29,129 bases of DNA from a virus (taxonomy: Duplodnaviria > Heunggongvirae > Uroviricota > Caudoviricetes): the IMG/VR virus record IMGVR_UViG_2728369553_000010; one strand, written 5' to 3'. Both the position numbers and the translations under genes were made by a program. The notes below the pieces were generated by a model. That model was not told where the DNA came from. It did no database searches and saw only the letters and a program-made list of their open reading frames with translations. Every line of letters starts with the position of its first letter. Position 1 is the first letter of the stretch. Shown here piece after piece: positions 1 through 29,129 of the stretch.

Positions 1-213
1 ATGTCTAACAAAATGACTGGTTTAGTAAAATGGTTTAACCCTGAAAAAGGTTTTGGTTTCATCACGCCGAAAGATGGCAGCAAAGATGTGTTTGTCCATT
101 TCTCAGCAATTCAGAGCAACGATTTCAAAACATTAACTGAGAATCAGGAAGTTGAATTTGGTATTGAGAACGGACCTAAAGGTCCTGCCGCTGTTCATGT
201 AGTGGCGCTTTGA
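1..213 (+). CDS. cspI: CspA-family cold-shock protein (70 aa); window begins exactly at its ATG so promoter and 5' leader are outside the window
   Basis: Translation [42 protein letters not shown]... carries the RNP1/RNP2 cold-shock-domain motifs (KGFGFI, VFVHF); the paralog assignment rests on remembered sequence and on synteny with gnsB/ydfO/Nu1-homolog as in the Qin prophage. Confidence 0.8.
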
Positions 214-442
214 GGTAGACAATATTACAAACCATATTCACTTTAGATGCCCGTGTTGTCATGGTTCCCAGTATAGAACATCATCTTTTGATGTTTCTGA
301 CATGAATCCTTTCGGGGCAAAATGTATCTTTTGTAAATCAATGATGATTACATTTGATAATATTTCACAATACTTAAATGCCAGCCGTCTGTCGTTGGAT
401 TTAAAAAAGTGAAAATGAAGGCTCCTTCGGGAGCTTTTTGGC

Positions 443-715
443 TTGGTGTCTATTCGATGGATACTCACATACTACGGTAACATCATGAAAAAAATCATAG
501 TTTTTTTTAACTCTGAACCAGCAGTGGTAGTGCCAGCGATGACTGGAGTTAACACCATCATGCGTGAATATCCAAATGGCGAAAAAACACACCTTACTGT
601 AATGGCCGCAGGGTTTCCATCTCTGACCGGAGATCATAAAGTCATTTATGTAGCCGCGGATCGACATGTTACTTCAGAAGAAATTCTGGAAGCAGCAATA
701 AGGCTCTTGAGTTGA
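443..715 (+). CDS. hypothetical protein (90 aa; alternative start at ATG 485, MKKIIVFF...)
   Basis: Open frame only; no recognisable motif and no strong Shine-Dalgarno. Position between the csp gene and the gnsB-like gene suggests a small moron gene, but this is weak. Confidence 0.3.
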   Translation: MVSIRWILTYYGNIMKKIIVFFNSEPAVVVPAMTGVNTIMREYPNGEKTHLTVMAAGFPSLTGDHKVIYVAADRHVTSEEILEAAIRLLS

Positions 716-883
716 TTTGATGCTATTGCATTGATAATTCAGGAAAATTCTCTTTGTCTGTTTGTGTAAAATTTAGACTATCGTATGTTGATTATTGCGA
801 TGTTTCATCTTATCTTTTACACGTTTGCACCATATAATCGACTTACTGTGTAACTGGAAAGTCATAACAGACTAAAAGAGGAA

Positions 884-1060
884 ATGATGAATATTGAAAA
901 CTTAAAAACAAAAGCAGAAGCAGATATTTCTGAATATATAACAAAAAAAATTATTGAACTTAAGAAAAAGACCGGGAAAGAAGTTACCAGTATTCAGTTT
1001 ACCGCACGGGAAAAAATGACGGGTCTTGAAAGCTATGATGTCAAGATTAATTTAATCTGA
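884..1060 (+). CDS. gnsB: GnsA/GnsB-family small protein (58 aa); not in the supplied ORF track (below its length cutoff)
   Basis: Manual translation MMNIENLKTKAEADISEYITKKIIELKKKTGKEVTSIQFTAREKMTGLESYDVKINLI; preceded by AAGAGG Shine-Dalgarno at about 874-879; closely resembles the GnsA/GnsB sequence as I remember it (...TAREKMTGLESYDVKI...). Confidence 0.7.
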   Translation: MMNIENLKTKAEADISEYITKKIIELKKKTGKEVTSIQFTAREKMTGLESYDVKINLI

Positions 1061-1174
1061 TGTATTCAATAATAAAATTTATCCATAAACCTCGTTTTTA
1101 CGGGGTTTTGTTATATTTGAATGGTTCCGAATATCTAAATCACAATTGTTGATGGTTTTTATTAAACCAATGCA

Positions 1175-1203
1175 GTCCGGCTCAGGAGTGAGAGAAGCCG
1201 GAC
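1175..1203. terminator. candidate bidirectional hairpin between convergent gnsB-like and ydfO-like genes
   Basis: GTCCGGCT (1175-1182) pairs perfectly with AGCCGGAC (1196-1203), 13-nt loop; flanking U-tracts are weak on both strands. Confidence 0.25.
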
Positions 1204-1211
1204 GTTATGGT

Positions 1212-1637
1212 TTAGCGTGGTAAGATCTGTGTAGTTTTCTGGATGCTTTCAGTAAATAGTAATGAATTATCAAAGGTATAGTAATATCTTTTTTGTTCGT
1301 GGATATTTGTAACCCACCGAAAAACTCCTGCTTTAGCAAGGTTTCTTCTGTATTCCTGAAATGTGATCTCTCTGGATTTCAGCTTATTAGAGGTCGTTTC
1401 TATAAGATGCCTATCCTTTGAAAATTTGACAGACACAATGTTTTTTAGGCCCTTTAATAACACTGTATTATCATTTTTTAATACAATATGAACATTCTCT
1501 GTGGCTAAATAGTAAATGTAATGTGAGACATTGTGACGTTTTAGCTCAGAATAAAACCATTGATAGTTTAAATCGTTTCGAACTTTATCAAATATTTGTT
1601 TAAAAATGACTACCTGATCCATAGATAAACCTTCCAT
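1212..1637 (-). CDS. ydfO: DUF1398-family protein, YdfO-like (141 aa)
   Basis: Intact ORF on minus strand; symbol assigned by synteny (between gnsB-like gene and the Nu1 gene, as ydfO lies in the Qin prophage) and remembered family membership, not by verified alignment. Confidence 0.5.
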
Positions 1638-1679
1638 GTGATATGAGGGGGCGTAGTCTGCACGATTATCTAAATTGCT

Positions 1680-1913
1680 TCAATCTGGTCTGACCTGTTT
1701 TCTGAGCAATTCAGTAATGTCACTCTTTTCTTTGTTTGCTTCAGAAGAAACTCTTTTTTCTGAGCACAGTCTCCGGCGGCAGGCTTCAATGACCCAGGCT
1801 GAGAAATTCCCGGACCCTTTTTGCTCAAGAGCGATGTTAATTTGTTCAATCATTTGGTTAGGAAAGCGGATGTTGCGGGTTGTTGTTCTGCGGGTTCTGT
1901 TCTTCGTTGACAT
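1680..1913 (-). CDS. ynfO: small ribbon-helix-helix-like protein, YlcI/YnfO family (77 aa)
   Basis: Translation MSTKNRTRRTTTRNIRFPNQMIEQINIALEQKG...: basic N-terminus followed by a beta-strand/helix pattern typical of RHH DNA-binding proteins; sits immediately upstream of cos/Nu1, where YlcI/YnfO homologs lie in DLP12/Qin-type prophages. Confidence 0.5.
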   Translation of the reverse strand: MSTKNRTRRTTTRNIRFPNQMIEQINIALEQKGSGNFSAWVIEACRRRLCSEKRVSSEANKEKSDITELLRKQVRPD

Positions 1914-2039
1914 GAGGTTGTCCCGTATTCAGTGTCGCTGATTTGTATTGTCTGAAGTTGTTTTTACGTTAAGTTGATGCAGATCAATTAATACGATATC
2001 TGCGTCATAATTGATTATTTGACGTGGTTTGATGGCGTA

Positions 2040-2300
2040 GATGCACGTTGTGACATGCAGATGATAATTATTATCATTTTGCGGGTCCTTTCCGGCGATC
2101 CGACAGGTTACGGGGCGGCGACCTCGCGGGTTTTCGCTATTTATGAAAATTTTCCGGTTTAAGGCGTTTCCGTTCTTCTTCGTTGTAACTTAATGTTTTT
2201 ATTTAAAATACCCCCTGAAAAGAAAGGAAACGACAGGTGCTGAAAACGAGCTTTTGGGCCTCTGTCGTTTCCTTTCTCTGTTTTTGGCCGTGGAATGAAC
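2040..2300 (+). other. cos packaging site (cosQ-cosN-cosB); cosN cohesive-end 12-mer at 2113..2124
   Basis: Sequence ...GATCCGACAGGTTACG|GGGCGGCGACCTCGCGGGTTTTCGCTATTTATGAAAATTTTCCGGTTTAAGGCGTTTCCGTTCTTCTTCGT... matches the lambda right-end/left-end junction as I remember it; Nu1 starts about 180 bp downstream, as in lambda. Confidence 0.9.
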
Positions 2301-2301
2301 A

Positions 2302-2821
2302 ATGGAAGTCAACAAAAAGCAGCTGGCTGACATTTTCGGTGCGAGTATCCGTACCATTCAGAACTGGCAGGAACAGGGAATGCCCGTTCTGCGAGGCGGT
2401 GGCAAGGGTAATGAGGTGCTTTATGACTCTGCCGCCGTTATAAGATGGTATGCCGAAAGGGATGCTGAAATTGAGAACGAAAAGCTGCGCCGGGAAGTTG
2501 AAGAACTGCGGCAGGCCAGCGAGGCAGATCTCCAGCCAGGGACTATTGAGTACGAACGCCATCGACTTACGCGTGCGCAGGCCGACGCACAGGAACTGAA
2601 GAATGCCAGAGACTCCGCTGAAGTGGTGGAAACCGCATTCTGTACTTTCGTGCTGTCGCGGATCGCAGGTGAAATTGCCAGTATTCTCGACGGGATCCCC
2701 CTGTCGGTGCAGCGGCGTTTTCCGGAACTGGAAAACCGACATGTTGATTTCCTGAAACGGGATATCATCAAAGCCATGAACAAAGCAGCCGCGCTGGATG
2801 AACTGATACCGGGGTTGCTGA

Positions 2822-2847
<26 letters not shown>
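2302..2847 (+). CDS. nu1: terminase small subunit Nu1 (181 aa)
   Basis: MEVNKKQLADIFGASIRTIQNWQEQGMPVLRGGGKGNEVLYDSAAVIRWY... is essentially lambda Nu1; same length; winged-HTH N-terminus. Confidence 0.97.
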
Positions 2848-6528
<3,681 letters not shown>

Positions 6529-6548
<20 letters not shown>

Positions 6549-7878
6549 TCTCCCGCATATTGCCAGCATGGCCTTTAATGAGCCGCTGATGCTTGAACCC
6601 GCCTATGCGCAGGTTTTCTTTTGTGCGCTTGCAGGCCAGCTTGGGATCAGCCGCCTGACGGATGCGGTGTCCGGCGACAGCCTGACTGCCCAGGAGGCAC
6701 CCGCGACGCTGGCATTATCCGGTGATGATGACGGACCACGACAGGCCCGCAGTTATCAGGTCATGAACGGCATCGCCGTGCTGCCGGTGTCCGGCACGCT
6801 GGTCAGCCGGACGCGGGCGCTGCAGCCGTACTCGGGGATGACCGGTTACAACGGCATTATCGCCCGTCTGCAACAGGCTGCCAGCGACCCGATGGTGGAC
6901 GGCATTCTGCTCGATATGGACACACCGGGCGGAATGGTGGCGGGAGCATTTGACTGCGCTGACATCATCGCCCGTGTGCGTGACATAAAGCCGGTATGGG
7001 CGCTGGCCAACGACATGAACTGCAGTGCAGGTCAGCTGCTTGCCAGTGCCGCCTCCCGACGTCTGGTCACGCAGACCGCACGGACAGGCTCCATCGGCGT
7101 CATGATGGCTCACAGTAATTACGGCGCTGCGCTGGAGAAACAGGGCGTGGAAATCACGCTGATTTACAGCGGCAGCCATAAGGTGGATGGCAACCCCTAC
7201 AGCCATCTTCCGGATGACGTCCGGGAGACACTGCAGTCCCGGATGGATGCAACCCGCCGGATGTTTGCGCAGAAGGTGTCGGCATATACCGGCCTGTCCG
7301 TGCAGGCTGTGCTGGATACCGAGGCTGCAGTGTACAGCGGTCAGGAGGCCATTGATGCCGGACTGGCTGATGAACTTGTCAACAGCACCGATGCGATCAC
7401 CGTTATGCGTGATGCACTGGATGCACGTAAATCCCGTCTCTCAGGAGGGCGAATGACCAAAGAGACTCAATCAACAACTGTTTCAGCCACTGCTTCGCAG
7501 GCTGACGTTACTGACGTGGTGCCAGCGACGGAGGGCGAAAACGCCAGCGCGGCGCAGCCGGACGTGAACGCGCAGATCACCGCTGCGGTTGCGGCAGAAA
7601 ACAGCCGCATTATGGGGATCCTCAACTGTGAGGAGGCTCACGGACGCGAAGAACAGGCCCGCGTGCTGGCAGAAACCCCCGGTATGACCGTGGAAACGGC
7701 CCGCCGCATTCTGGCCGCAGCACCACAGAGTGCACAGGCGCGCAGTGACACNNNNNNNNNNNNNNNNNNNNNNNNNNNNNNNNNNNNNNNNNNNNNNNNN
7801 NNNNNNNNNNNNNNNNCGCTGGCTGCAGGTAACCCGGCATCTGATGCCGTTAACGATTTGCTGAACACACCAGTGTAA
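6529..7878 (+). CDS. C: head maturation protease / scaffold C (GTG start 6529, 20-nt overlap with B); interrupted by a 65-nt N run (7752..7816) that keeps the frame
   Basis: VTAELRNLPHIASMAFNEPLMLEPAYAQVFFCALAGQLGIS... matches lambda C; the track's upstream Met at 6394 is inside B and is not the real start. C-terminal ...LAAGNPASDAVNDLLNTPV resumes in frame after the N run. Confidence 0.9.
7243..7878 (+). CDS. nu3: scaffolding protein Nu3, internal in-frame start within C
   Basis: ATG at 7243 lies 714 nt after the C start, the same offset as Nu3 in lambda as I remember it; reads MDATRRMFAQKVSAYTGLS...; shares the C stop codon. Confidence 0.8.
   Translation: MDATRRMFAQKVSAYTGLSVQAVLDTEAAVYSGQEAIDAGLADELVNSTDAITVMRDALDARKSRLSGGRMTKETQSTTVSATASQADVTDVVPATEGENASAAQPDVNAQITAAVAAENSRIMGILNCEEAHGREEQARVLAETPGMTVETARRILAAAPQSAQARSDXXXXXXXXXXXXXXXXXXXXXXXLAAGNPASDAVNDLLNTPV
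7752..7816. other. run of 65 ambiguous bases (N) - sequence gap or masked segment
   Basis: Directly visible; lies in the C/Nu3 C-terminal coding region. Confidence 1.
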
Positions 7879-17631: not shown

Positions 17632-20600
17632 ATGGGTAAAGGAAGCAGTAAGGGGCATACTCCGCGCGAAGCGAAGGACAACCTGAAGACCACGCAGTTG
17701 CTGAGTGTGATCGATGCCATCAGCGAAGGGCCGATTGAAGGTCCGGTGGAGGGATTAAAAAGCGTGCTGCTGAACAGTACGCCGGTGCTGGACAGTGAGG
17801 GGAATACCAATATCTCCGGCGTCACGGTGGTGTTCCGGGCCGGTGAGCAGGAGCAGACTCCGCCGGAGGGATTTGAATCCTCCGGCTCCGAGACGGTGTT
17901 GGGTACGGAAGTGAAATACGACACGCCGATCACCCGCGCCATCACGTCGGCAAACATCGACCGACTGCGCTTTACCTTCGGTGTGCAGGCACTGGTGGAA
18001 ACCACCTCAAAGGGGGACCGGAATCCGTCGGAAGTTCGCCTGCTGGTTCAGATACAGCGTAATGGTGGCTGGGTGACGGAAAAAGACATCACCATTAAGG
18101 GCAAAACCACCTCGCAGTATCTGGCCTCGGTGGTGGTGGATAACCTGCCGCCGCGCCCGTTTAATATCCGGATGCGCAGAATGACGCCGGACAGTACCAC
18201 AGACCAGCTGCAGAACAAAACGCTCTGGTCGTCATACACCGAAATCATCGATGTGAAACAGTGCTACCCGAACACGGCACTGGTCGGCGTACAGGTGGAT
18301 TCGGAGCAGTTCGGCAGCCAGCAGGTGAGCCGTAATTATCATCTGCGCGGGCGTATTCTGCAGGTGCCGTCGAATTATAACCCGCAGACGCGGCAATACA
18401 GCGGTATCTGGGACGGAACGTTTAAACCGGCATACAGCAACAACATGGCCTGGTGTCTGTGGGATATGCTGACCCACCCGCGCTACGGCATGGGGAAACG
18501 TCTTGGTGCGGCAGATGTGGATAAATGGGCGCTGTATGTCATCGGCCAGTACTGCGACCAGTCGGTGCCGGACGGCTTTGGCAGCACGGAGCCGCGCATC
18601 ACCTGTAATGCCTGGCTGACCACACAGCGCAAGGCGTGGGATGTGCTCAGTGATTTCTGCTCGGCGATGCGCTGTATGCCGGTATGGAACGGGCAGACGC
18701 TGACGTTCGTGCAGGACCGACCGTCGGATAAGGTGTGGACCTATAACCGCAGTAATGTGGTGATGCCGGATGATGGCGCGCCGTTCCGCTACAGCTTCAG
18801 CGCCCTGAAGGACCGCCATAATGCCGTTGAGGTGAACTGGATTGACCCGGATAACGGCTGGGAGACGGCGACAGAGCTTGTGGAGGACACGCAGGCCATT
18901 GCCCGTTACGGTCGTAATGTCACGAAGATGGATGCCTTTGGCTGTACCAGCCGGGGGCAGGCACACCGAGCCGGGCTGTGGCTGATTAAAACGGAGCTGC
19001 TGGAAACGCAGACCGTGGATTTCAGCGTCGGCGCAGAAGGGCTTCGCCATGTACCGGGCGATGTTATTGAAATCTGTGATGATGACTATGCCGGTATCAG
19101 CACCGGTGGTCGTGTGCTGGCGGTGAACAGCCTGACCCGGACGCTGACGCTTGACCGTGAAATCACGCTGCCATCCTCCGGTACCACGCTGATAAGCCTG
19201 GTTGACGGAAGTGGCAATCCGGTCAGCGTGGAGGTTCAGTCCGTCACCGACGGCGTGAAGGTGAAAGTGAGCCGTGTTCCTGACGGTGTTGCTGAATACA
19301 GCGTATGGGGGCTGAAGCTGCCGAGGCTGCGCCAGCGACTGTTCCGCTGCGTGAGTATCCGTGAGAACGACGACGGCACGTATGCCATCACCGCCGTGCA
19401 GCATGTGCCGGAAAAAGAGGTCATCGTGGATAACGGGGCGCACTTTGACGGCGAACAGAGTGGCACGGTGAACGGTGTCACGCCGCCAGCGGTGCAGCAC
19501 CTGACCGCAGAAGTCACTGCAGACAGCGGGGAATACCAGGTGCTGGCCCGCTGGGACACGCCGAAGGTGGTGAAGGGCGTGAGCTTCCTGCTTCGCCTGA
19601 CCGTGGCAGCGGATGACGGCAGTGAGCGGCTGGTCAGCACGGCCCGGACGACGGAAACCACTTACCGCTTCACACAACTGGCTCTGGGGAACTACAGGCT
19701 GACAGTCCGGGCGGTAAATGCGTGGGGGCAGCAGGGCGATCCGGCGTCGGTATCGTTCCGGATTGCCGCACCGGCAGCGCCGTCGCGGATTGAGCTGACG
19801 CCGGGCTATTTTCAGATAACCGCCACGCCGCATCTTGCGGTTTATGATCCGACGGTACAGTTTGAGTTCTGGTTCTCGGAAAAGCGGATTGCGGATATCA
19901 GGCAGGTTGAAACCACAGCACGCTATCTTGGCACGGCGCTGTACTGGATAGCCGCCAGTATCAATATCAGGCCGGGCCATAATTATTATTTTTACGTTCG
20001 CAGTGTGAACACCGTTGGCAAATCGGCATTCGTGGAGGCTGTTGGTCAGCCGAGTGATGACGCATCCGGCTATCTGGATTTTTTCAAAGGCGAGATAGGG
20101 AAAACCCATCTGGCTCAGGAGCTGTGGACGCAGATTGATAACGGTCAGCTTGCGCCTGACCTGGCTGAAATCAGGACATCCATTACGGATGTCAGCAATG
20201 AAATCACACAGACCGTCAATAAGAAACTGGAAGACCAGAGTGCAGCGATCCAGCAGATACAGAAGGTTCAGGTTGATACAAATAATAATCTGAACAGCAT
20301 GTGGGCTGTGAAGCTGCAGCAGATGCAGGACGGACGCCTTTATATTGCGGGTATCGGTGCCGGTATTGAGAACACCCCCGACGGCATGCAGAGTCAGGTG
20401 CTGCTGGCGGCAGACAGGATTGCGATGATTAATCCTGCAAATGGCAACACAAAACCGATGTTTGTTGGTCAGGGTGATCAGATATTCATGAATGAAGTGT
20501 TCCTGAAATATCTGACGGCTCCCACCATTACCAGCGGCGGTAATCCTCCTGCATTTTCCCTGACACCGGACGGAAAGCTGACCGCTAAAAATGCAGATAT

Positions 20601-21111
20601 CAGTGGCAGTGTGAATGCGAACGCCGGGACGCTCAACAACGTTACGATAAATGAAAACTGTCAGATTAAAGGGAAACTGTCAGCCAACCAGATTGAAGGC
20701 GATATTGTCAAAACAGTGGGTAAGGCTTTCCCGCGGGACTCCCGGGCACCGGAGCGGTGGCCATCAGGGACCATTACCGTCAGGATTTATGACGATCAGC
20801 CGTTTGACCGGCAGATTGTTATTCCGGCGGTGGCATTCAGCGGTGCTAAACATGAGAGAGAGCATACTGATATTTACTCCTCATGCCGCCTGATAGTGAA
20901 GAAAAATGGTGCTGAAATTTATAACCGTACCGCGCTGGATAATACGCTGATTTACAGTGGTGTTATTGATATGCCAGCTGGTCACGGCCACATGACGCTG
21001 GAGTTTTCGGTGTCAGCATGGCTGGTAAATGACTGGTATCCCACAGCAAGTATCAGCGATTTGCTGGTTGTGGTGATGAAGAAAGCCACCGCAGGCATCA
21101 GTATCAGCTGA
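17632..21111 (+). CDS. J: tail tip / central tail fibre protein J (1159 aa) with a C-terminal receptor-binding region that differs from lambda J
   Basis: [85 protein letters not shown]... is lambda-J-like for roughly the first 800 residues; the remainder is only partly similar and of lower GC. Confidence 0.95.
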
Positions 21112-21130
21112 ATTTTATAACCCATATACG

Positions 21131-21156
21131 GGCGCCAGAAATGGCGCCTTTTTTAT
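21131..21156 (+). terminator. intrinsic terminator downstream of J
   Basis: GGCGCC(21131-21136)-AGAAAT-GGCGCC(21143-21148) followed by TTTTTTAT (21149-21156). Confidence 0.7.
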
Positions 21157-21178
21157 TGCAGAAAAGCGAGAGGTAATT

Positions 21179-21833
21179 ATGCGTAAAGTTTGTGCAGCCA
21201 TTTTGTCCACAGCCATCTGTCTGGCCGTATCCGGTGCGCCTGCATGGGCGTCTGAGCAGCAGGCCACACTGAGCGCAGGGTATCTTAATGCCCGTACGAA
21301 CGCTCCCGGCAGCGATAATCTGAACGGGATTAACGTGAAATACCGTTATGAGTTTACGGACACGCTGGGGCTGATTACGTCATTCAGTTATGCCAACGCT
21401 GAAGATGAGCAAAAAACGCATTACAGCGATACCCGCTGGCATGAAGATTCCGTGCGTAACCGCTGGTTCAGCGTAATGGCGGGGCCGTCTGTGCGCGTGA
21501 ATGAATGGTTCAGCGTGTATGCGATGGCGGGTGTGGCTTACAGCCGTGTGTNNNNNNNNNNNNNNNNNNNNNNNNNNNNNNNNNNNNNNNNNNNNNNNNN
21601 NNNNNNCGACTTTCTTCGGGGATTATCTCCGCGTAACTGACAACAAGGGGAAAACGCACGATGTGCTGACCGGAAGTGATGACGGTCGCCACAGCAACAC
21701 GTCTCTGGCGTGGGGGGCTGGCGTGCAGTTTAACCCGACCGAATCCGTGGCCATTGATATTGCTTATGAAGGCTCCGGCAGTGGTGACTGGCGCACTGAC
21801 GGTTTCATCGTGGGTGTCGGTTATAAATTCTGA
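21179..21833 (+). CDS. lom: Lom/Ail/PagC-family outer-membrane beta-barrel protein (moron); reading frame changes across the 55-nt N run, so integrity cannot be judged
   Basis: N-terminal [24 protein letters not shown] is a signal peptide; ...[12 protein letters not shown]... and C-terminal ...[42 protein letters not shown] match the lambda Lom family and end in the aromatic residue typical of OMP beta-barrels. Track ORFs 21179..21640 and 21501..21833 are in different frames. Confidence 0.75.
21552..21606. other. run of 55 ambiguous bases (N) - sequence gap or masked segment inside lom
   Basis: Directly visible. Confidence 1.
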
Positions 21834-21859: not shown

Positions 21860-21886
21860 AGCCCGCCGGTTCAGGCGGGCTTTTTT
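21860..21886 (+). terminator. intrinsic terminator downstream of lom
   Basis: AGCCCGCC(21860-21867)-GGTTCA-GGCGGGCT(21874-21881) followed by TTTTTTG. Confidence 0.7.
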
Positions 21887-21897
21887 GTGGGGTGAAT

Positions 21898-24800
21898 ATG
21901 GCAGTAAAGATTTCAGGTGTACTGAAAGACGGCACAGGAAAACCGGTACAGAACTGCACAATCCAGCTGAAAGCAAAACGTAACAGCACCACGGTGGTGG
22001 TGAACACGGTGGCCTCAGAAAATCCGGATGAAGCCGGGCGTTACAGCATGGACGTTGAGTACGGTCAGTACAGCGTTATTCTGTTGGTGGAAGGATTCCC
22101 GCCGTCACATGCCGGGACCATCACCGTGTATGAAGACTCCCGACCCGGTACGCTGAATGATTTTCTCGGTGCCATGACGGAGGATGATGCCCGGCCAGAG
22201 GCACTGCGCCGTTTTGAGCTGATGGTGGAAGAGGTGGCGCGTAACGCGTCCGCGGTGGCACAGAACACGGCAGCCGCGAAGAAGTCAGCCGGCGATGCCG
22301 GCACATCAGCCCGTGAGGCGGCAACCCATGCGACTGATGCTGCAGGCTCAGCACGCGCAGCCAGCACGTCAGCCGGACAGGCCGCGTCGTCGGCTCAGTC
22401 AGCGTCTTCCAGCGCAGGAACGGCATCAACAAAGGTCAGTGAAGCATCGAAAAGTGCTGCTGCTGCAGAGTCCTCAAAAAGCGCGGCAGCTACCAGTGCC
22501 AGTGCCGCGAAAACGTCAGAAACGAATGCCGCAGCGTCACAACAATCAGCAGCCACTTCTGCATCCACCGCGACCACGAAAGCGTCAGAAGCTGCCACCT
22601 CAGCCCGGGATGCGGCGGCCTCAAAAGAGGCAGCGAAATCATCAGAAACGAACGCATCCTCGAGCGCCAGTAGCGCAACTTCCTCGGCAACGGCGGCAGG
22701 AAATTCCGCGAAGGCGGCAAAAACGTCCGAGACGAACGCTAAGTCTTCTGAGACGGCAGCGGGACAGAGCGCCTCAGCTGCGGCAGGCTCAAAAACAGCG
22801 GCTGCATCATCTGCCAGCGCCGCGTCAACAAGTGCCGGGCAGGCCTCAGCCAGTGCCACCGCCGCCGGAAAATCGGCAGAAAGCGCCGCATCATCCGCTT
22901 CAACAGCCACAACGAAGGCTGGCGAAGCCACTGAACAGGCCAGCGCAGCAGCGAGTTCTGCTTCCGCAGCGAAGACATCCGAAACGAACGCGAAAGCGTC
23001 GGAAACCAGCGCAGAATCCTCAAAAACGGCTGCCGCATCGTCAGCCAGTTCGGCGGCGTCATCGGCATCATCGGCGTCTGCTTCAAAAGATGAGGCGACC
23101 AGACAGGCGTCAGCAGCGAAGGGCAGCGCCACGACAGCATCCACGAAGGCGACAGAGGCAGCTGGCAGTGCGACGGCGGCAGCACAGAGCAAAAGTACGG
23201 CGGAATCCGCGGCAACGCGCGCCGAGACAGCGGCAAAACGGGCAGAGGATATTGCATCCGCCGTGGCGCTTGAGGATGCGAGCACGACGAAAAAGGGGAT
23301 AGTACAGCTCAGCAGTGCGACCAACAGTACGTCTGAAACGCTGGCGGCAACGCCAAAGGCAGTAAAATCAGCCTATGACAATGCAGAGAAACGTCTGCAG
23401 AAAGACCAGAACGGCGCTGATATACCCGATAAGGGACGCTTCCTGAACAACATTAACGCGGTCAGTAAAACAGACTTTGCTGATAAGCGTGGTATGCGTT
23501 ATGTGCGGGTTAACGCTCCTGCAGGTGCAACATCTGGAAAATATTACCCTGTTGTTGTTATGCGTTCTGCTGGCTCAGTAAGCGAACTGGCATCAAGGGT
23601 CATTATCACCACGGCAACGCGAACCGCAGGCGATCCGATGAATAACTGCGAGTTTAACGGATTTGTTATGCCTGGTGGCTGGACTGACAGGGGGCGTTAT
23701 GCTTATGGAATGTTCTGGCAATATCAAAACAATGAACGAGCCATCCACTCAATAATGATGAGTAATAAGGGCGATGATTTGCGCTCTGTGTTCTATGTTG
23801 ATGGCGCTGCTTTCCCTGTTTTTGCGTTTATCGAAGATGGCCTGTCAATATCCGCACCTGGTGCTGATCTCGTTGTTAATGATACGACCTATAAGTTTGG
23901 GGCAACAAATCCAGCGACTGAATGTATCGCGGCGGACGTTATCCTTGATTTTAAGAGTGGGCGTGGTTTTTATGAGTCTCATTCGTTAATCGTTAACGAT
24001 AATTTGTCGTGCAAAAAACTTTTTGCCACAGACGAAATTGTAGCGCGTGGTGGTAATCAGATTCGAATGATAGGTGGGGAGTATGGTGCATTATGGCGTA
24101 ATGATGGCGCTAAAACTTACCTGCTGCTTACCAATCAAGGTGATGTTTATGGTGGCTGGAATACATTAAGACCGTTTGCTATTTATAACGCAACCGGCGA
24201 ACTGGTTATTGGAACCAAACTGTCCGCAAGTCTGAACGGTAATGCATTAACAGCAACAAAGCTGCAAACGCCAAGACTGGTTTCTGGTGTTGAGTTTGAT
24301 GGTTCCAGAGATATTACTTTAACCGCCGCGCATGTGGCTGCTTTTGCCAGAAGGGCAACGGATACATATGCCGATGCGGATGGTGGCGTTCCCTGGAATG
24401 CCGAATCAGGTGCTTACAATGTCACCCGCTCTGGCGACAGCTATATTCTGGTTAACTTCTATACCGGAGTCGGAAGTTGCCGGACCTTGCAGATGAAGGC
24501 GCATTACAGAAATGGTGGTCTGTTCTACCGTTCTTCAAGAGACGGTTATGGTTTTGAGGAAGACTGGGCAGAAGTTTATACCTCGAAAAATCTTCCACCA
24601 GAAAGCTACCCAGTCGGCGCACCAATCCCGTGGCCATCAGATACCGTTCCGTCTGGTTATGCCCTGATGCAGGGGCAGACTTTTGACAAATCTGCTTACC
24701 CGAAACTTGCAGCCGCTTATCCGTCAGGCGTGATCCCTGATATGCGTGGCTGGACGATTAAGGGCAAACCTGCCAGTGGTCGGGCCGTATTGTCTCAGGA

Positions 24801-25248
24801 ACAGGACGGCATTAAATCGCATACCCACAGCGCCAGCGCATCCAGTACGGATTTGGGGACGAAAACCACATCGTCGTTTGATTACGGCACTAAATCCACG
24901 AATAACACCGGGGCGCATACCCATAGTGTTAGCGGTACGGCTGCTTCAGCCGGTGCACATACCCATTCGATGACATTTGTTTCAGGTGGTTCCAGTGGTG
25001 CTCCGGGAAGTGGAGCATCTGATTATTCTAAATACAGTGTTAACACTTCTTCTGCAGGCGCTCATACGCACTCTGTATCGGGTACTGCTGCAAGCGCAGG
25101 TGCACACGCACATACTGTGGGTATTGGTGCTCATACGCACTCCGTTGCGATTGGTTCACATGGACACACCATCACCGTTAACGCTGCTGGTAACGCGGAA
25201 AACACCGTCAAAAACATCGCATTTAACTATATTGTGAGGCTTGCATAA
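21898..25248 (+). CDS. stf: side tail fibre protein Stf (about 1116 aa from ATG 21898; track start 21892 is an upstream GTG)
   Basis: [80 protein letters not shown]... matches the lambda/Rac Stf N-terminus; long Ala/Ser/Thr-rich repetitive shaft; C-terminal His-x-His repeats ending ...[14 protein letters not shown] as in lambda Stf. Confidence 0.9.
22240..23290 (+). repeat. Ala/Ser/Thr-rich low-complexity coding repeats in the Stf shaft (SETNA motif recurs four times)
   Basis: Translation is about 350 aa of A/S/T/K/E with recurring ...AAKTSETNA... units (nt about 22510, 22640, 22723, 22975); this skewed composition also creates the long artefactual ORFs on both strands here. Confidence 0.6.
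24820..25200 (+). repeat. His-rich tandem coding repeats (GAHTHS-type) in the Stf C-terminal tip
   Basis: ...[10 protein letters not shown]...[23 protein letters not shown]...[42 protein letters not shown]; the [17 protein letters not shown] unit occurs twice. Confidence 0.6.
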
Positions 25249-25823
25249 TGGCATTCAGAATGAGTGAACAACCACGGACCATAAAAATTTATAATCTGCT
25301 GGCCGGAACTAATGAATTTATTGGTGAAGGTGATGCATATATTCCGCCTCATACAGGTCTGCCAGCAAACAGTACCGATATTGCACCGCCAGATATTCCG
25401 GCTGGCTTCGTGGCTGTTTTCAACAGTGATGAGTCATCGTGGCATCTCGTTGAAGATCATCGGGGTAAAATGGTTTATGACGTGGCTTCCGGCGACGCGT
25501 TATTTATTTCTGAACTCGGTCCGTTACCGGAAAATGTTACCTGGTTATCGCCGGAAGGGGAGTTTCAGAAGTGGAACGGTACAGTCTGGGTGAAGGATAC
25601 GGAAGCAGAAAAACTGTTCCGGATCCGGGAGGCGGAAGAAACAAAAAACAGCCTGATGCAGGTAGCCAGTGAGCATATAGCGCCACTTCAGGATGCTGTA
25701 GATCTGGAAATCGCAACGGAGGAAGAAACCTCATTGCTGGAAGCCTGGAAAAAGTATCGGGTGTTGCTGAACCGTGTTGATACATCAACTGCACAGGATA
25801 TTGAATGGCCAGCACTGCCGTAG
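25248..25823 (+). CDS. tfa: tail fibre assembly protein Tfa (191 aa)
   Basis: [124 protein letters not shown]... matches lambda/Qin Tfa; ATG overlaps the stf stop (TAATGG). Confidence 0.9.
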
Positions 25824-25920
25824 GGTAAAACATATAAATTCTATAATTAGATGTATCTTTCCATTTACGGCAAGGAAGGGGGCTTGGAAGACGTAAAGCA
25901 TCTCACACCGAGATTATTTT

Positions 25921-26511
25921 TTATATGTCAGGTGTCTGAAGTTTTGCTTTGGCTCTTAAAATGGTTTGCCGCGAGGTTTTGAATTCCCGGGCAATGGCAC
26001 TTATACTTACACCTGACTTAATTCGTTCGAATACCACCTGTTTCTGTTCTTCATTTAACACAGGTGGTCGACCAAAACGTTTCCCTGCGCCGCGGGCTCT
26101 TACTATCCCGGAATGAGTGCGTTCAAGTAAAAGGTCTCGTTCAAATTCAGCGACTGCTGAAATTACGTGCATCATCATTTTTCCTGTTGGACTGGTCAGG
26201 TCAATGCCCCCCAATGCTAAGCAATGCACTCTGATACCTGTTTCGGTCAGTTGTTCCACTGTTTTCCTGATATCCATTGCATTACAACCAAGGCGATCCA
26301 GTTTTGTCACAATCAATTGATCACCACATTTCAGGCGAGCAAGCAACCGGTTAAAACCAGGACGCTCACTGGTTGCTGCTGAGCCGCTAATGTGTTCTTC
26401 GATTATTTGCTGAGGTTTGATTTTAAAACCTGCACTTTCGATTTCCCGGCGTTGATTTTCGGTGGTCTGATCCAGCGTTGATATCCGACAGTAAGCAAAA
26501 ATTCGAGACAT
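25921..26511 (-). CDS. pin: serine recombinase, Pin/Gin/Hin-type DNA invertase (196 aa)
   Basis: [29 protein letters not shown]...: N-terminal catalytic serine motif (YCRISTLDQ), resolvase core and C-terminal HTH (...[18 protein letters not shown]...); same size and position as pinQ/pinR of K-12 cryptic prophages. Confidence 0.9.
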
Positions 26512-26648
26512 AGTGAGACTCTATACGAAATTGGTGTTCATATCATAATGCATCTCAGAAAATAATTTTGATTATTTTTGTGCATATTTGTATGTACACG
26601 TTCGAAAATAAACGAATGCGTATGCAACCCCGTAATTTTGGTGAGACC

Positions 26649-26662
26649 CAAAATCGATTTTG
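26649..26662. repeat. perfect 14-bp palindrome CAAAATCGATTTTG about 135 bp upstream of the pin start
   Basis: Directly visible; A-tract / central dinucleotide / T-tract layout loosely resembles Din-family crossover sites, but the match to gix/hix is only partial and the central CG is itself palindromic. Confidence 0.3.
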
Positions 26663-26827
26663 TGAAAAATGGCTTTAACTCGGTTTGTTTTTCGAGTTCC
26701 GGGCAGACTCAAGGAAGAAGAATAGTGTTGCGTGTTATTTTAACCAGATTTTAATTTGTTTGGTCGTGGAAAAGTGGAGCAAAATGTTGTTAAAGTGGAA
26801 AAATGATAAAAAAGTAAGTTTGTTATA

Positions 26828-27061
26828 TTACATTTTACCATTTAAATTTTGGTTGTCTTTAAGAACTGATATCGCTGTTTGTAATAATTCTTTGTTATCC
26901 AGCCATGATTTTTTCTTTATGTTTCCTTCAATGTAATCAAGCAATGTTCTGGTATTGATAGGTCTTCCCTGTTTTGCTACTTCCACTACAGCATCCCCTA
27001 GGATAATTCTTACTTCAGGAAGCTGCGCAGGGAACCACTTTAGGGTGTCTTTTGATTTCAT
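26828..27061 (-). CDS. ydfK: small cold-shock-associated protein, YdfK/YnaE family (77 aa; track offers an 88-aa version starting at 27094)
   Basis: MKSKDTLKWFPAQLPEVRIILGDAVVEVAKQGRPINTRTLLDYIEGNIKKKSWLDNKELLQTAISVLKDNQNLNGKM; the ATG at 27061 has an AAGGAA Shine-Dalgarno about 8 nt upstream, the 27094 start has none; position next to pin matches ydfK in Qin. Confidence 0.7.
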   Translation of the reverse strand: MKSKDTLKWFPAQLPEVRIILGDAVVEVAKQGRPINTRTLLDYIEGNIKKKSWLDNKELLQTAISVLKDNQNLNGKM

Positions 27062-27276
27062 GAAGATATTCCTTAAAATATTATTGATTTTCATTGCGAT
27101 ATTGTATGTCTGATTCAGGATATGTTGACTTATACATCGGTTTTGTCTGGGTTATTGGATATGCCAATCCCTAATTTTATTAGGGCATGACTAAAAATGC
27201 TGAATATGATAAGGAGAGAAGTGATTATCAGTATGCTGTTCATATAGCCTCGAATTAGTAATGTGTTATATATGAT

Positions 27277-27475
27277 ATAGTTGACAATTTTTATCTTGGG
27301 TGTTCTTAAAGTTCGTAGATAAACATTGTCGTTTCAGGTATACAGGAATGCTAACAGGTGGCGGCAAAAATCAGGCGGTTTATGGCGCAATCTGAAGTGG
27401 CAACTGCAAACTATCTTATGCAGAGACTCTACACGGATTGGGTTTAAAAGTATACATAGATAACAATTTTTATCT
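27277..27475 (+). repeat. pair of 20-nt direct repeats ATAG(T/A)T(G/A)ACAATTTTTATCT at 27277..27296 and 27456..27475 in the terminal non-coding arm
   Basis: Directly visible, 17 of 20 identical with a shared 13-nt core ACAATTTTTATCT; the first copy contains a TTGACA hexamer. Confidence 0.4.
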
Positions 27476-27845
27476 GAAGAAGAAAAATATCAAGGTGATA
27501 TAGCCTATATGCCTTTGATGCGGAGGAATGAATGTGATGGGAGTGATGTATCTGAATAGTTGAAAAACCGCAGACACGCCTTATGCAAGAACGTGCTGCG
27601 GTTGGCTGGTAAATTTTTCGATAGTGCGAGTATTGAATGATTTCCAGCCGTTATTGATTTTACGCGTAAATCCATGAAAAAACTACTTATCTGTTGGGGA
27701 GTTTTTTGGGGCATATATGGGACAGAAATAGGCCCCAGATAGACACTGAGATCGAACTTAGGATGCTTTTAAAAAAATGCAACTATCTGAAAAAACCTAG
27801 AAAACGCCAAGGAAACCACAGGATGGGAAAAAACACCTGTGAATT

Positions 27846-29129
27846 ATGGATTTCCAGTTATATTCGCTCGGCGCAGCGTTAGTGTTTCATGAAATATTTT
27901 TTCCTGAATCATCAACGGCAATGGCGTTAATTCTGGCAATGGGAACCTACGGTGCAGGTTATGTGGCGCGTATTGTCGGAGCATTTATTTTCGGCAAAAT
28001 GGGCGACAGAATAGGGCGTAAAAAAGTGCTCTTTATTACCATCACCATGATGGGGATCTGTACCACCTTAATTGGTGTGTTACCGACCTATGCACAGATT
28101 GGTGTTTTTGCACCCATCTTGCTGGTGACGTTGCGTATTATTCAGGGGTTGGGTGCAGGTGCGGAAATTTCCGGTGCCGGTACGATGCTGGCGGAATATG
28201 CGCCAAAAGGTAAGCGCGGAATTATCTCCTCATTTGTGGCTATGGGAACTAACTGCGGAACCTTGAGCGCAACGGCAATCTGGGCCTTTATGTTCTTCAT
28301 TCTCAGTAAAGAGGAACTGCTGGCGTGGGGATGGCGTATACCGTTCCTGGCGAGCGTTGTCGTGATGGTCTTTGCTATCTGGTTGCGTATGAATCTGAAA
28401 GAAAGCCCGGTCTTTGAGAAGGTTAACGACAGTAACCAACCGACAGCAAAACCTGCACCTGCTGGTAGCATGTTCCAGAGCAAATCCTTCTGGCTGGCAA
28501 CAGGGCTGCGTTTTGGTCAGGCGGGTAACTCCGGGTTAATTCAGACTTTCCTTGCAGGCTATTTAGTGCAGACGTTATTGTTTAACAAAGCAATTCCAAC
28601 AGATGCATTGATGATCAGTTCGATTCTCGGCTTTATGACCATTCCGTTCCTTGGTTGGTTATCCGATAAAATTGGTCGCCGGATCCCGTATATTATTATG
28701 AATACCTCCGCGATTGTGCTGGCATGGCCAATGCTTTCTATCATTGTAGATAAAAGCTATGCCCCGAGCACCATTATGGTTGCACTGATTGTGATTCATA
28801 ACTGTGCGGTGCTGGGATTATTTGCTCTGGAAAACATTACCATGGCAGAAATGTTCGGCTGTAAAAACCGCTTTACCCGGATGGCTATTTCTAAAGAAAT
28901 TGGTGGTCTTATCGCTTCCGGTTTTGGTCCTATCCTGGCGGGTATTTTCTGCACCATGACGGAATCCTGGTATCCGATCGCCATTATGATCATGGCATAT
29001 TCAGTGATTGGTTTAATCTCTGCGCTGAAAATGCCAGAGGTGAAAGACCGTGATTTAAGTGCGCTGGAAGACGCTGCGGAAGATCAACCGCGTGTTGTAA
29101 GAGCTGCGCAACCTTCCAGAAGTCTGTAA
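27846..29129 (+). CDS. ydfJ: MFS transporter of the metabolite:H+ symporter (ProP/KgtP-like) family, 5'-truncated (427 aa); probable host gene split by prophage integration
   Basis: Translation begins MDFQLYSLGAALVFHEIFFPESS..., which aligns with the middle of TM1 of ProP-type transporters (WFDFGVYGF...FFP), followed by the GxxxDRxGRK loop motif (GKMGDRIGRK); a TGA stop lies in frame two codons upstream of the Met, so the N-terminal segment is absent. Stop at 29127..29129. Confidence 0.8.
   Translation: MDFQLYSLGAALVFHEIFFPESSTAMALILAMGTYGAGYVARIVGAFIFGKMGDRIGRKKVLFITITMMGICTTLIGVLPTYAQIGVFAPILLVTLRIIQGLGAGAEISGAGTMLAEYAPKGKRGIISSFVAMGTNCGTLSATAIWAFMFFILSKEELLAWGWRIPFLASVVVMVFAIWLRMNLKESPVFEKVNDSNQPTAKPAPAGSMFQSKSFWLATGLRFGQAGNSGLIQTFLAGYLVQTLLFNKAIPTDALMISSILGFMTIPFLGWLSDKIGRRIPYIIMNTSAIVLAWPMLSIIVDKSYAPSTIMVALIVIHNCAVLGLFALENITMAEMFGCKNRFTRMAISKEIGGLIASGFGPILAGIFCTMTESWYPIAIMIMAYSVIGLISALKMPEVKDRDLSALEDAAEDQPRVVRAAQPSRSL

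Follow-up and report, generated by a model that had tools for sequence, protein, structure and literature searches.

Gene J of the window is intact and shared with many E. coli strains

The window analysed here, i.e. the whole 29,129-nucleotide stretch of DNA from a virus of the Caudoviricetes (IMG/VR record IMGVR_UViG_2728369553_000010), carries gene J, encoding the tail tip attachment protein (central tail fibre), on the plus strand at positions 17632..21111. The ORF list and translation reveal an intact reading frame of 1159 amino acids against 1132 in phage lambda, just as the initial annotation had stated. All six gpJ-specific Pfam domains (PF24801, PF13550, PF24421, PF24489, PF09327 and PF12421) score far above their cut-offs and follow the lambda order, and the series is complete: FNIII-A, the Phage-tail_3 hub, two Ig/FNIII domains, the tail-tip fibre and a C-terminal Ig receptor-binding domain (RBD). 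Lambda_tail_I is matched upstream of J, and Ail/Lom, tail fibre and Caudo_TAP domains downstream, in the gene order I-J-lom-stf-tfa that is also seen in lambda, 434 and the E. coli strain ABWA45. Window J is a member of the lambda family of tip attachment proteins, sharing with lambda gpJ (NP_040600; structures 8XCK and, with LamB, 8XCJ) the domain order, a conserved island, the gene neighbourhood and, as modelled, the Ig-like RBD fold (TM 0.77-0.78). An intrinsic terminator-like hairpin with a T tract adjoins the J stop codon on its 3′ side (21130..21157, plus strand; a consensus scan gives a stem of 8 bp, 6 of which are GC pairs, and then TTTTTATT), and terminators are annotated at the same post-J position in phages 434 and 21. 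No inverted repeats marking a Pin-invertible tail-fibre segment were found in 24300-26600.

Over all 3480 nt, window J is 100% identical to the gene for gpJ WP_000515751.1 of E. coli ABWA45 ('phage attachment tail tip protein J'; UniRef A0A1M1SXS0), which is found in many other strains too. The identity to ABWA45 also holds at 100% for the downstream flank up to ydfJ; the window lom, unlike that of ABWA45, contains a run of 55 N. The prophage is located at the Qin locus, which in K-12 holds a defective remnant. The exact window J protein is encoded on at least 1000 contigs in public collections, and a match to the J 3′ end is present in approximately 62% of complete E. coli genomes. This J allele is therefore already catalogued, very common and not new.

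The Qin location, with its defective K-12 counterpart, and the fact that the J gene of the Stx1 prophage VT1-Sakai is itself frameshifted might suggest that window J is a gene in decay, left over in a defective prophage and with a C-terminus that has no current function. We consider this hardly credible, given the full-length ORF, the abundance of the exact protein, the intact I, stf and tfa genes around J and the fact that PhiR55_1, a phage with the same RBD (99% core identity to the window), forms plaques.

Window J is a mosaic of exchangeable modules

We aligned window J with J proteins of known phages and mapped mismatches and gaps along the gene. The first part, comprising the lambda-type hub domains and two FNIII/Ig domains (17632..20040, plus strand; amino acids 1 to ~805), is 97.3% identical to lambda J over amino acids 1-805, in line with the earlier statement that J is lambda-like for about 800 residues, and reaches 93-99% nucleotide identity per 120-nt bin. 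Similarly high amino acid identities are seen with 434 (97.6%), phage 21 (96.9%) and PhiR55_1 (98.0%), with VT1-Sakai and phi330 at only 71-77%.

Identity to lambda then falls to 46.7% over amino acids 806-925, with 28 gap columns. This segment belongs to a long-shaft module (20040..20550, plus strand) made up of an alpha-helical shaft and an upper beta-prism fibre, in the domain nomenclature of Ge & Wang 2024 (PMC11101478). Relative to lambda it is longer by 84 nt (28 codons), inserted at 20136-20198 and 20234-20254, the lambda shaft being 28 residues shorter. Over amino acids 806-925 the window is 47% identical to lambda and 434, in contrast to 97.5% for phage 21, 95% for VT1-Sakai and 100% for PhiR55_1, and phage 21 J as a whole shows 95% nucleotide identity over J nt 1-3100, long shaft included. 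A single-sequence AF2 model of amino acids 790-1010 was poor (pLDDT 44); its sole confident part, a long helix at amino acids 842-899, is weak evidence for the shaft. The initial annotation had brought the extra length of the protein into its reasoning on a change of receptor, an argument that fails, as the 27 additional residues lie in the shaft and not in the RBD, and phage 21 shares this shaft yet uses LamB.

The shaft is joined to the receptor-binding module by a conserved island in the lower fibre prism (20466..20635, plus strand), with 95% nucleotide identity to lambda over 20512-20631 and 85.9% amino acid identity over residues 926-1003. The string quoted in the initial annotation for a conserved island within a patchily similar region lies inside this segment. 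Lambda residue 964, the boundary used in the gpJ chimera 1A2 discussed below, aligns with window residue 992 (nt 20605); upstream of it 1A2 has the short lambda shaft, whereas the window has the long one. Overlapping the island, a short junction patch (20574..20735, plus strand; mismatch map) is phi330/A8-like and partly lambda-like. It is nearly identical to phi330/A8 over 20596-20735. PhiR55_1 J (PV340571; isolated on E. coli C), which has 1159 amino acids, 96% nucleotide identity overall, a shaft that is 100% identical at the amino acid level and an RBD core at 99.2%, is only 83-90% identical over the patch. Per bin, nucleotide identity over 20632-20751 is 90% for phi330 versus 83% for PhiR55_1 and VT1-Sakai. 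Since the patch is closest to phi330/A8 and not to PhiR55_1 or VT1-Sakai, the mosaicism extends to a fine scale at the junction. Window J is thus a mosaic of modules.

The drop in GC content is a family-wide property of the J 3′ third

The initial annotation had described the 3′ end of J as visibly AT-richer and had connected this with a swapped C-terminus. The compositional drop itself is real: GC falls from 59.7% (GC3 72.7%) upstream of position 19791 to 50.2% (GC3 40.9%) downstream. Its use as a mark of a swap does not hold, because lambda J shows the same drop (GC from 59.2% to 53.5%, GC3 from 71.5% to 42.9%), as do the J genes of phages 21, 434 and PhiR55_1; the fall is a property of the J 3′ third across the family. 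Furthermore, it begins at ~19790, in DNA with 97% identity to lambda, and thus precedes the point of divergence by some 250 nt. As it starts in lambda-like DNA and is shared by relatives, the shift in composition is older than, and independent of, the module exchange. A recent foreign import from a lower-GC donor into a lambda-like gene, to which the within-gene fall from 59.7% to 50.2% might otherwise point, has next to no likelihood when the fall precedes the breakpoint and GC3 passes from ~72% to ~42% in window and lambda J alike.

The receptor-binding domain belongs to the VT1-Sakai/1A2 class

The RBD core (20746..21111, plus strand) is matched by Pfam Ig_GpJ_C (PF12421), with the match extending over amino acids 1029-1159. 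Over core residues 1041-1159, identity is 99.2% to PhiR55_1 and 95.8% to VT1-Sakai, as compared to 62.7% to phage 21, 61.0% to phi330, 42.0% to lambda and 42.2% to 434. Relative to the LamB-binding lambda RBD (amino acids 985-1132), the window is 44.9% identical over residues 1004-1159, i.e. 42-45% depending on whether the core or the larger segment is compared. The C-terminal 250 residues are 57% identical to those of lambda rather than near-identical, the outcome that the initial annotation had set against its own reading, and the C-terminal string that it had quoted as unlike lambda is present. With phmmer, window J matched the A8 chain with an E value of 2e-157 and the lambda chain with 6e-136. 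An AF2 model of the RBD (pLDDT 81.8) aligned in Foldseek with probability 1.00 and TM 0.74-0.78 to 9wca, 9wcb, 8xck and 8xcj, and the C-terminal domain is thus predicted to adopt the gpJ RBD fold. The best match among solved structures is phi330 J, the equivalent of the 'A8' gpJ chimera (9WCA and, with OmpC G17 of EDL933, 9WCB; TM 0.74-0.75), an OmpC binder.

Three segments of the RBD can be predicted to contact the receptor. Loop 1 (20725..20772, plus strand) aligns with lambda residues 1004-1019, including residue 1012, a key host-range residue and the site of an indel that defines J lineages (PMC6646904), as well as with the phi330 loop T918-Y921 (PMC12502783). Hairpin 2 (20842..20880, plus strand) aligns with the phi330 hairpin E953-S962, which is located inside the OmpC barrel in an AlphaFold3 model (PMC12502783); the window hairpin has 5-6 residues fewer than its counterparts in phage 21, phi330 and 434, and carries an R in place of the K of VT1-Sakai/1A2. 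Hairpin 3 (21013..21054, plus strand) aligns with the phi330 hairpin A1015-P1020 and lambda residues 1100-1114, including residue 1107, on which gaining OmpF use depends (PMC6646904); here the N of VT1-Sakai/1A2 is replaced by D in the window. Window and lambda differ in all three of the predicted contact loops. Compared with the window, phi330/A8 has a longer hairpin 2 and a shorter loop 1, whereas the 1A2/VT1-Sakai RBD, at 95.8% core identity and 94% identity across the 156 residues 1004-1159, has no indels and the same loop lengths. Five of the 119 core residues differ from 1A2, two of them, the R/K and D/N exchanges, in predicted contact hairpins. As judged from sequence, the window RBD belongs to a class different from that of lambda, namely the VT1-Sakai/1A2 class.

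Evidence from the 1A2 chimera points to OmpC as the receptor

1A2 is a lambda gpJ chimera described by Brödel et al., Nature 2024 (PMC11338833). In Supplementary file 1 of that article, the 3′ end of 'GpJ 1A2' translates to the RBD of VT1-Sakai (Sp15) J. The DNA is recoded and the available text is OCR-damaged, so that frames had to be stitched for translation; 176 of the 190 residues fall within exact 5-mers shared with VT1-Sakai, and the remaining 14 are at sites of lost bases. According to that study, delivery by 1A2 particles is 5% for wild-type, LamB-bearing MG1655, compared with 98% for MG1655 with OmpC-EDL933 (variant G17). In MG1655 without lamB and ompC, delivery is efficient once the EDL933 OmpC is expressed, and it is at least 76% on 20 of the 23 plasmid-borne natural OmpC variants. 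K-12 OmpC is reported there as not usable by 1A2, whereas A8 also uses it.

Because 1A2, with an RBD core 96% identical to that of the window, delivers in an OmpC-dependent manner, the receptor of window J most likely differs from that of lambda and is OmpC instead of LamB. Likewise, the window RBD class is most likely allele-selective, accepting most natural E. coli OmpC variants but not K-12 OmpC. The original proposal that a swapped C-terminus predicts a different outer-membrane receptor is thereby supported, both by the distinct RBD class and by OmpC-dependent delivery through 1A2, while for the window allele itself the assignment is inferred.

Could the window RBD still bind LamB, with its divergence reflecting arms-race drift on the same receptor? 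Phage 21 uses LamB, has the same long shaft and is 68% identical to the window in the RBD, and the RBDs of lambda and phage 21, both LamB users, are themselves only 49% identical. However, 1A2 particles barely deliver into wild-type MG1655 (the text examined gives no lamB expression for these cultures), and a strain deleted for lamB receives their DNA efficiently when provided with a suitable OmpC. Continued use of LamB is, in our estimate, very unlikely. The nearest characterised phages proved a poor guide to the receptor: the window RBD shows 68% identity both to that of phage 21 (LamB) and to that of phi330 (OmpC), two phages with different receptors whose RBDs share 81% identity. One mutation enables phage 21 to use OmpC. 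That few substitutions can change the receptor in the J family counts against a firm OmpC assignment for the window allele.

The same sensitivity bears on the R/D sub-variant that the window shares with PhiR55_1. Of the five positions at which its core departs from 1A2, two are in predicted contact hairpins (one aligns with lambda 1107), and single substitutions alter receptor use in phage 21; the sub-variant might accordingly use OmpF, PhoE, OmpN or a clearly different range of OmpC alleles from 1A2. This is improbable in view of the 95.8% core identity, the same loop lengths and the conservative nature of both substitutions. A milder version, in which the sub-variant (R in hairpin 2, D at the lambda-1107 position) recognises measurably different OmpC alleles or an additional porin, is somewhat more plausible but, on balance, still doubtful.

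Recorded hosts of phages with the window RBD class are E. coli C, ECOR13 or unspecified E. coli, with K-12 in none. We found no receptor determination for PhiR55_1 or other PhiR phages in the literature searched; in a 2026 Nature paper that works with PhiR phages, the only dependences described are on ManYZ and SNIPE. The phi330 paper cites its reference 47 for OmpC use by long-tailed Stx phages, but this reference concerns the virulent phage PP01 and was set aside as not relevant. An article on Gifsy-1 J was of no help for comparing RBDs, as it gives identities to lambda J for the N- and C-terminal parts only.

Discussion

Taken together, there is a strong likelihood that window J is an intact, ordinary lambda-family allele recombined from interchangeable modules, with an RBD class that is most likely OmpC-binding. 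In this scheme, the hub and FNIII part is a lambda-type module, the helical shaft and upper fibre are a longer version that is also found in phage 21, and the short conserved island is the probable crossover point. The last ~120-155 residues form an Ig-like RBD whose class is represented in many E. coli prophages, among them the Stx1 prophage VT1-Sakai, and in PhiR55_1. By analogy with lambda, the bottom loops of the three RBD copies at the tip of the fibre may enter a trimeric porin of the outer membrane, and porin binding may trigger opening of the tail tip. For the window RBD class, this porin would most likely be OmpC, not LamB, recognised in an allele-selective manner.

We predict that laboratory strains of K-12 would show no plaques with a phage induced from the window prophage, and that such a phage would require a host whose OmpC allele is not that of K-12, e.g. 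one of the EDL933 type. If the R/D sub-variant does recognise other OmpC alleles or porins, E. coli lineages would be divided, by two or three residues in the loops, between prophage tail tips that are identical in other respects. Neither the K-12 plaquing prediction nor exchange at the island is new, and their import goes little beyond correct annotation. The locus illustrates how exchange at the conserved island rebuilds J genes; engineers use this same junction for retargeting lambda particles.

Organisation of J and its divergence from lambda

The region 20040-21111 forms the final (3′) third of a long plus-strand ORF (17632-21111, 1159 aa), which is gene J, encoding the tail tip attachment protein gpJ, of a lambda-like prophage. 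The full set of gpJ domains is recognised by Pfam in the same order as in lambda, each far above its cut-off (FNIII-A_GpJ, Phage-tail_3, Ig_J, Ig_J_second, Phage_Tail_Tip and Ig_GpJ_C, the last at aa 1029-1159); a lambda I homologue lies directly 5′ of J, and an Ail/Lom gene, a gene for an 1118-aa side tail fibre and a tail-fibre assembly gene lie on its 3′ side. Terminator-like hairpins with T tracts stand immediately 3′ of J (21130-21149) and of lom (21860-21881), positions that also carry annotated terminators in phages 434 and 21.

Alignment of lambda J to window J, with identity taken per segment, bears out the initial annotation, which had described a protein that is lambda-like for about 800 residues and only patchily similar thereafter, with one conserved island: identity is 97.3% over aa 1-805, 46.7% over aa 806-925 (where window J has 28 extra residues), 85.9% over aa 926-1003, which hold the island, and 44.9% over aa 1004-1159. 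The C-terminal string quoted there is present in window J. Within the C-terminal 350 aa, for which an alignment had been proposed, the last 250 aa are only 57% identical to lambda J and therefore not near-identical to it.

We compared window J with the J genes of lambda, 434, 21, phi330, VT1-Sakai and PhiR55_1. From 17632 to ~20040 it is closest to lambda, 434, 21 and PhiR55_1, with VT1-Sakai and phi330 at only 71-77% amino acid identity. The long shaft module that follows (~20040-20550) is closest to 21, PhiR55_1 and VT1-Sakai, with lambda and 434 at only 47% amino acid identity; the conserved island (20466-20635) is closest to lambda (95% nucleotide identity in 20512-20631), and a junction patch (20574-20735) to phi330, with PhiR55_1 and VT1-Sakai at only 83-90% nucleotide identity. 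Finally, the core of the C-terminal receptor-binding domain (RBD; 20746-21111) is closest to PhiR55_1 (99.2% amino acid identity) and VT1-Sakai (95.8%), followed by phage 21 (63%), phi330 (61%), and lambda and 434 (42% each). This layout agrees with a survey of 1207 natural J homologues, which reported excess variation in a ‘specificity region’ (lambda aa 960-1132), phylogenies that conflict between this region and the remainder of J, and indels that define lineages at lambda residues 1012 and 1107 (PMC6646904). Both residues align with loops that differ in window J, two of the three such loops.

Neither base composition nor length bears on receptor specificity

The initial annotation had also pointed to a lower GC content at the C-terminal end of J. 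The drop is real, from 59.7% (GC3 72.7%) in the 5′ part to 50.2% (GC3 40.9%) from ~19791 on, but it is no sign of a swap: it starts inside DNA that is 97% identical to lambda, lambda J itself falls from 59.2% to 53.5% (GC3 from 71.5% to 42.9%), and J drops likewise in phages 21, 434 and PhiR55_1. J genes share this shift in their 3′ third, and it is uninformative on the window allele.

The length of 1159 aa is as first described; it exceeds that of lambda J by 27 residues, which are due to 84 nt without lambda counterpart, at 20136-20198 and 20234-20254. In the lambda structure the corresponding region follows the second FNIII domain, precedes the RBD and comprises the alpha-helical shaft together with the uppermost part of the beta-prism fibre (PMC11101478). 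A single-sequence AF2 model of the shaft region is poor overall (pLDDT 44), and its sole confident stretch tentatively suggests a long helix at aa 842-899. Phage 21 J shares this long shaft (97.5% identity over aa 806-925), and the receptor of phage 21 is LamB (PMC11336670). Therefore, the length difference does not set the receptor. The longer shaft would extend the fibre by a few nanometres; we know of no functional consequence of this. Thus, neither the GC nor the length argument has a bearing on receptor specificity.

The receptor-binding domain belongs to a class with a published OmpC receptor

AF2, given 34 sequences, models the C-terminal 175 aa of J as a beta-sandwich (mean pLDDT 81.8). 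Foldseek matches of this model are 9wca (A8 gpJ713, closed), 9wcb (A8 gpJ713 bound to OmpC G17 of EDL933), 8xck (lambda, closed) and 8xcj (lambda bound to LamB), each with TM 0.74-0.78 and probability 1.00, and a sequence search of the PDB returns the same entries (E 2e-157 and 6e-136).

Homology to characterised phages alone is insufficient to assign the receptor: the RBDs of phage 21, a LamB user, and phi330, an OmpC user (PMC12502783), are equally close to that of window J (68% identity each) and 81% identical to each other. More direct evidence is available from Brödel et al. (Nature 2024), who joined C-terminal portions of gpJ from natural variants to lambda gpJ, with the fusion point at aa 964, the counterpart of window aa 992, and screened the chimeras in a lamB deletion strain; their Supplementary file 1 gives ‘GpJ 1A2’ and ‘GpJ A8’ (PMC11338833). 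The supplementary text was machine-read, with bases lost, and the 1A2 insert is recoded; three frames were translated and then stitched. Of the 190 C-terminal residues of VT1-Sakai J, exact 5-mers from 1A2 cover 176, and those left uncovered fall where bases were lost; A8 covers 173/190 residues of phi330 J. VT1-Sakai J, from an Stx1 prophage, is split in its annotation into two overlapping CDSs, described as ‘truncated by a mutation’ (record 1100-4572); despite this, the legible sequence of 1A2, a functional chimera, agrees with the VT1-Sakai RBD.

According to the source data (PMC11338833), 1A2 gives 5% delivery to wild-type MG1655 and 98% to MG1655 with OmpC-EDL933. In MG1655 without lamB and ompC, delivery at top MOI is at least 76% for 20 of the 23 natural OmpC variants supplied, the failures being G1, G2 and G40. 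The G1 values are those of the OmpC-MG1655 panel, and G17 is the EDL933 variant, from the title of PDB entry 9wcb. We took delivery values from panels other than Panel C (OmpC-EDL933) of Extended Data Fig. 2, where the 1A2 and A8 values duplicate those of Panel B (OmpC-MG1655) and conflict with Fig. 1b, Extended Data Fig. 1 (G17) and Extended Data Fig. 8; this is probably a spreadsheet copy error.

The delivery pattern of 1A2, with its VT1-Sakai-type RBD, identifies the class to which window J belongs by sequence as predicted OmpC binders that reject K-12 OmpC. The hosts recorded for deposited phages of this class are E. coli C, ECOR13 or unspecified E. coli, never K-12, which is loosely consistent with such rejection. 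The proposal that a swapped C-terminus predicts a different outer-membrane receptor was, then, right in substance.

How far this extends to the window allele depends on the 5 of 119 RBD core residues that differ from VT1-Sakai/1A2. Two lie in predicted contact hairpins (window residue first): R vs K in GAKHE(R/K)EHTDI and D vs N in LVN(D/N)WYP. An AlphaFold3 model places the phi330 hairpins aligned with both sites at the OmpC barrel (PMC12502783), and the D/N site aligns with lambda residue 1107, needed for gain of OmpF use (PMC6646904). A shifted OmpC allele range or another porin, LamB, and further rival readings would share the minor part of the probability. Both changes are conservative, loop lengths are identical to those of 1A2, and PhiR55_1 is a viable phage carrying the R/D form; we consider it quite likely that window J uses OmpC.

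By analogy with the lambda structures, a J trimer would close the tail tip and extend a fibre of FNIII, shaft, prism and RBD, and the bottom loops of the three RBDs would insert into the extracellular mouth of the porin trimer. Binding might then spread the RBD bases, twist the prism, flip the helical shaft and release the FNIII strings, opening the tip for DNA ejection.

Distribution of the allele

The J allele is already catalogued and extremely common, in a class with a published receptor. Its DNA is identical over 3480/3480 nt to that of gpJ WP_000515751.1 of E. coli ABWA45, with a downstream flank that is also 100% identical, and the exact protein (UniRef name ‘Host specificity protein J’) occurs on at least 1000 contigs of a public collection. 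Searched against 5426 complete E. coli genomes, the final 512 nt of J find a match at ≥80% identity in 3805, with coverage of ≥80% in 3364 genomes and ≥99% identity in 286 records. The same RBD class is found in the deposited phages PhiR55_1, PhiR46_1, PhiR47_1, PhiR5_1, vB_EcoS-640R1 and VT1-Sakai, as well as in PPompW prophages and a series of long-tailed Stx2a phages.

Prophage surroundings

The prophage lies at the Qin locus, with tfaQ, pinQ, ydfK, ynfT and a 5′-truncated ydfJ 3′ of the tail fibre genes. Its right end (25248-29129), with a tfaQ-like assembly gene (25248-25823), the pinQ recombinase (25921-26511, minus strand) and the truncated ydfJ MFS transporter gene (27846-29129), looks like a full-length version of Qin, which in K-12 is a defective remnant. 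A Pin-family invertase adjoins the tail fibre genes. In 24300-26600 we found no inverted repeats of ≥14 nt flanking the tfa-pin region and no room for an alternative fibre-tip cassette, so that an invertible switch of host range in the manner of Mu, P1 or e14 seems to be missing or degenerate.

Two N runs interrupt the window, one of 65 N in the head/tail morphogenesis region (7752-7816) and one of 55 N (21552-21606) that splits lom into two ORFs (21179-21640 and 21501-21833). Since the flanks of the latter are directly contiguous in E. coli ABWA45, where lom is intact (600 nt), the 55 N are a pure insertion (mask or assembly gap) and not a biological frameshift. The side tail fibre (21892-25248) contains a ~350-aa low-complexity Ala/Ser/Thr-rich repeat region, which accounts for a GC-rich, strongly AT-skewed stretch (skew up to 0.5, especially in 22250-23300), and its C-terminal part carries Gp34_trimer, Collar and His-rich ‘GAHTHS’ fibre repeats.
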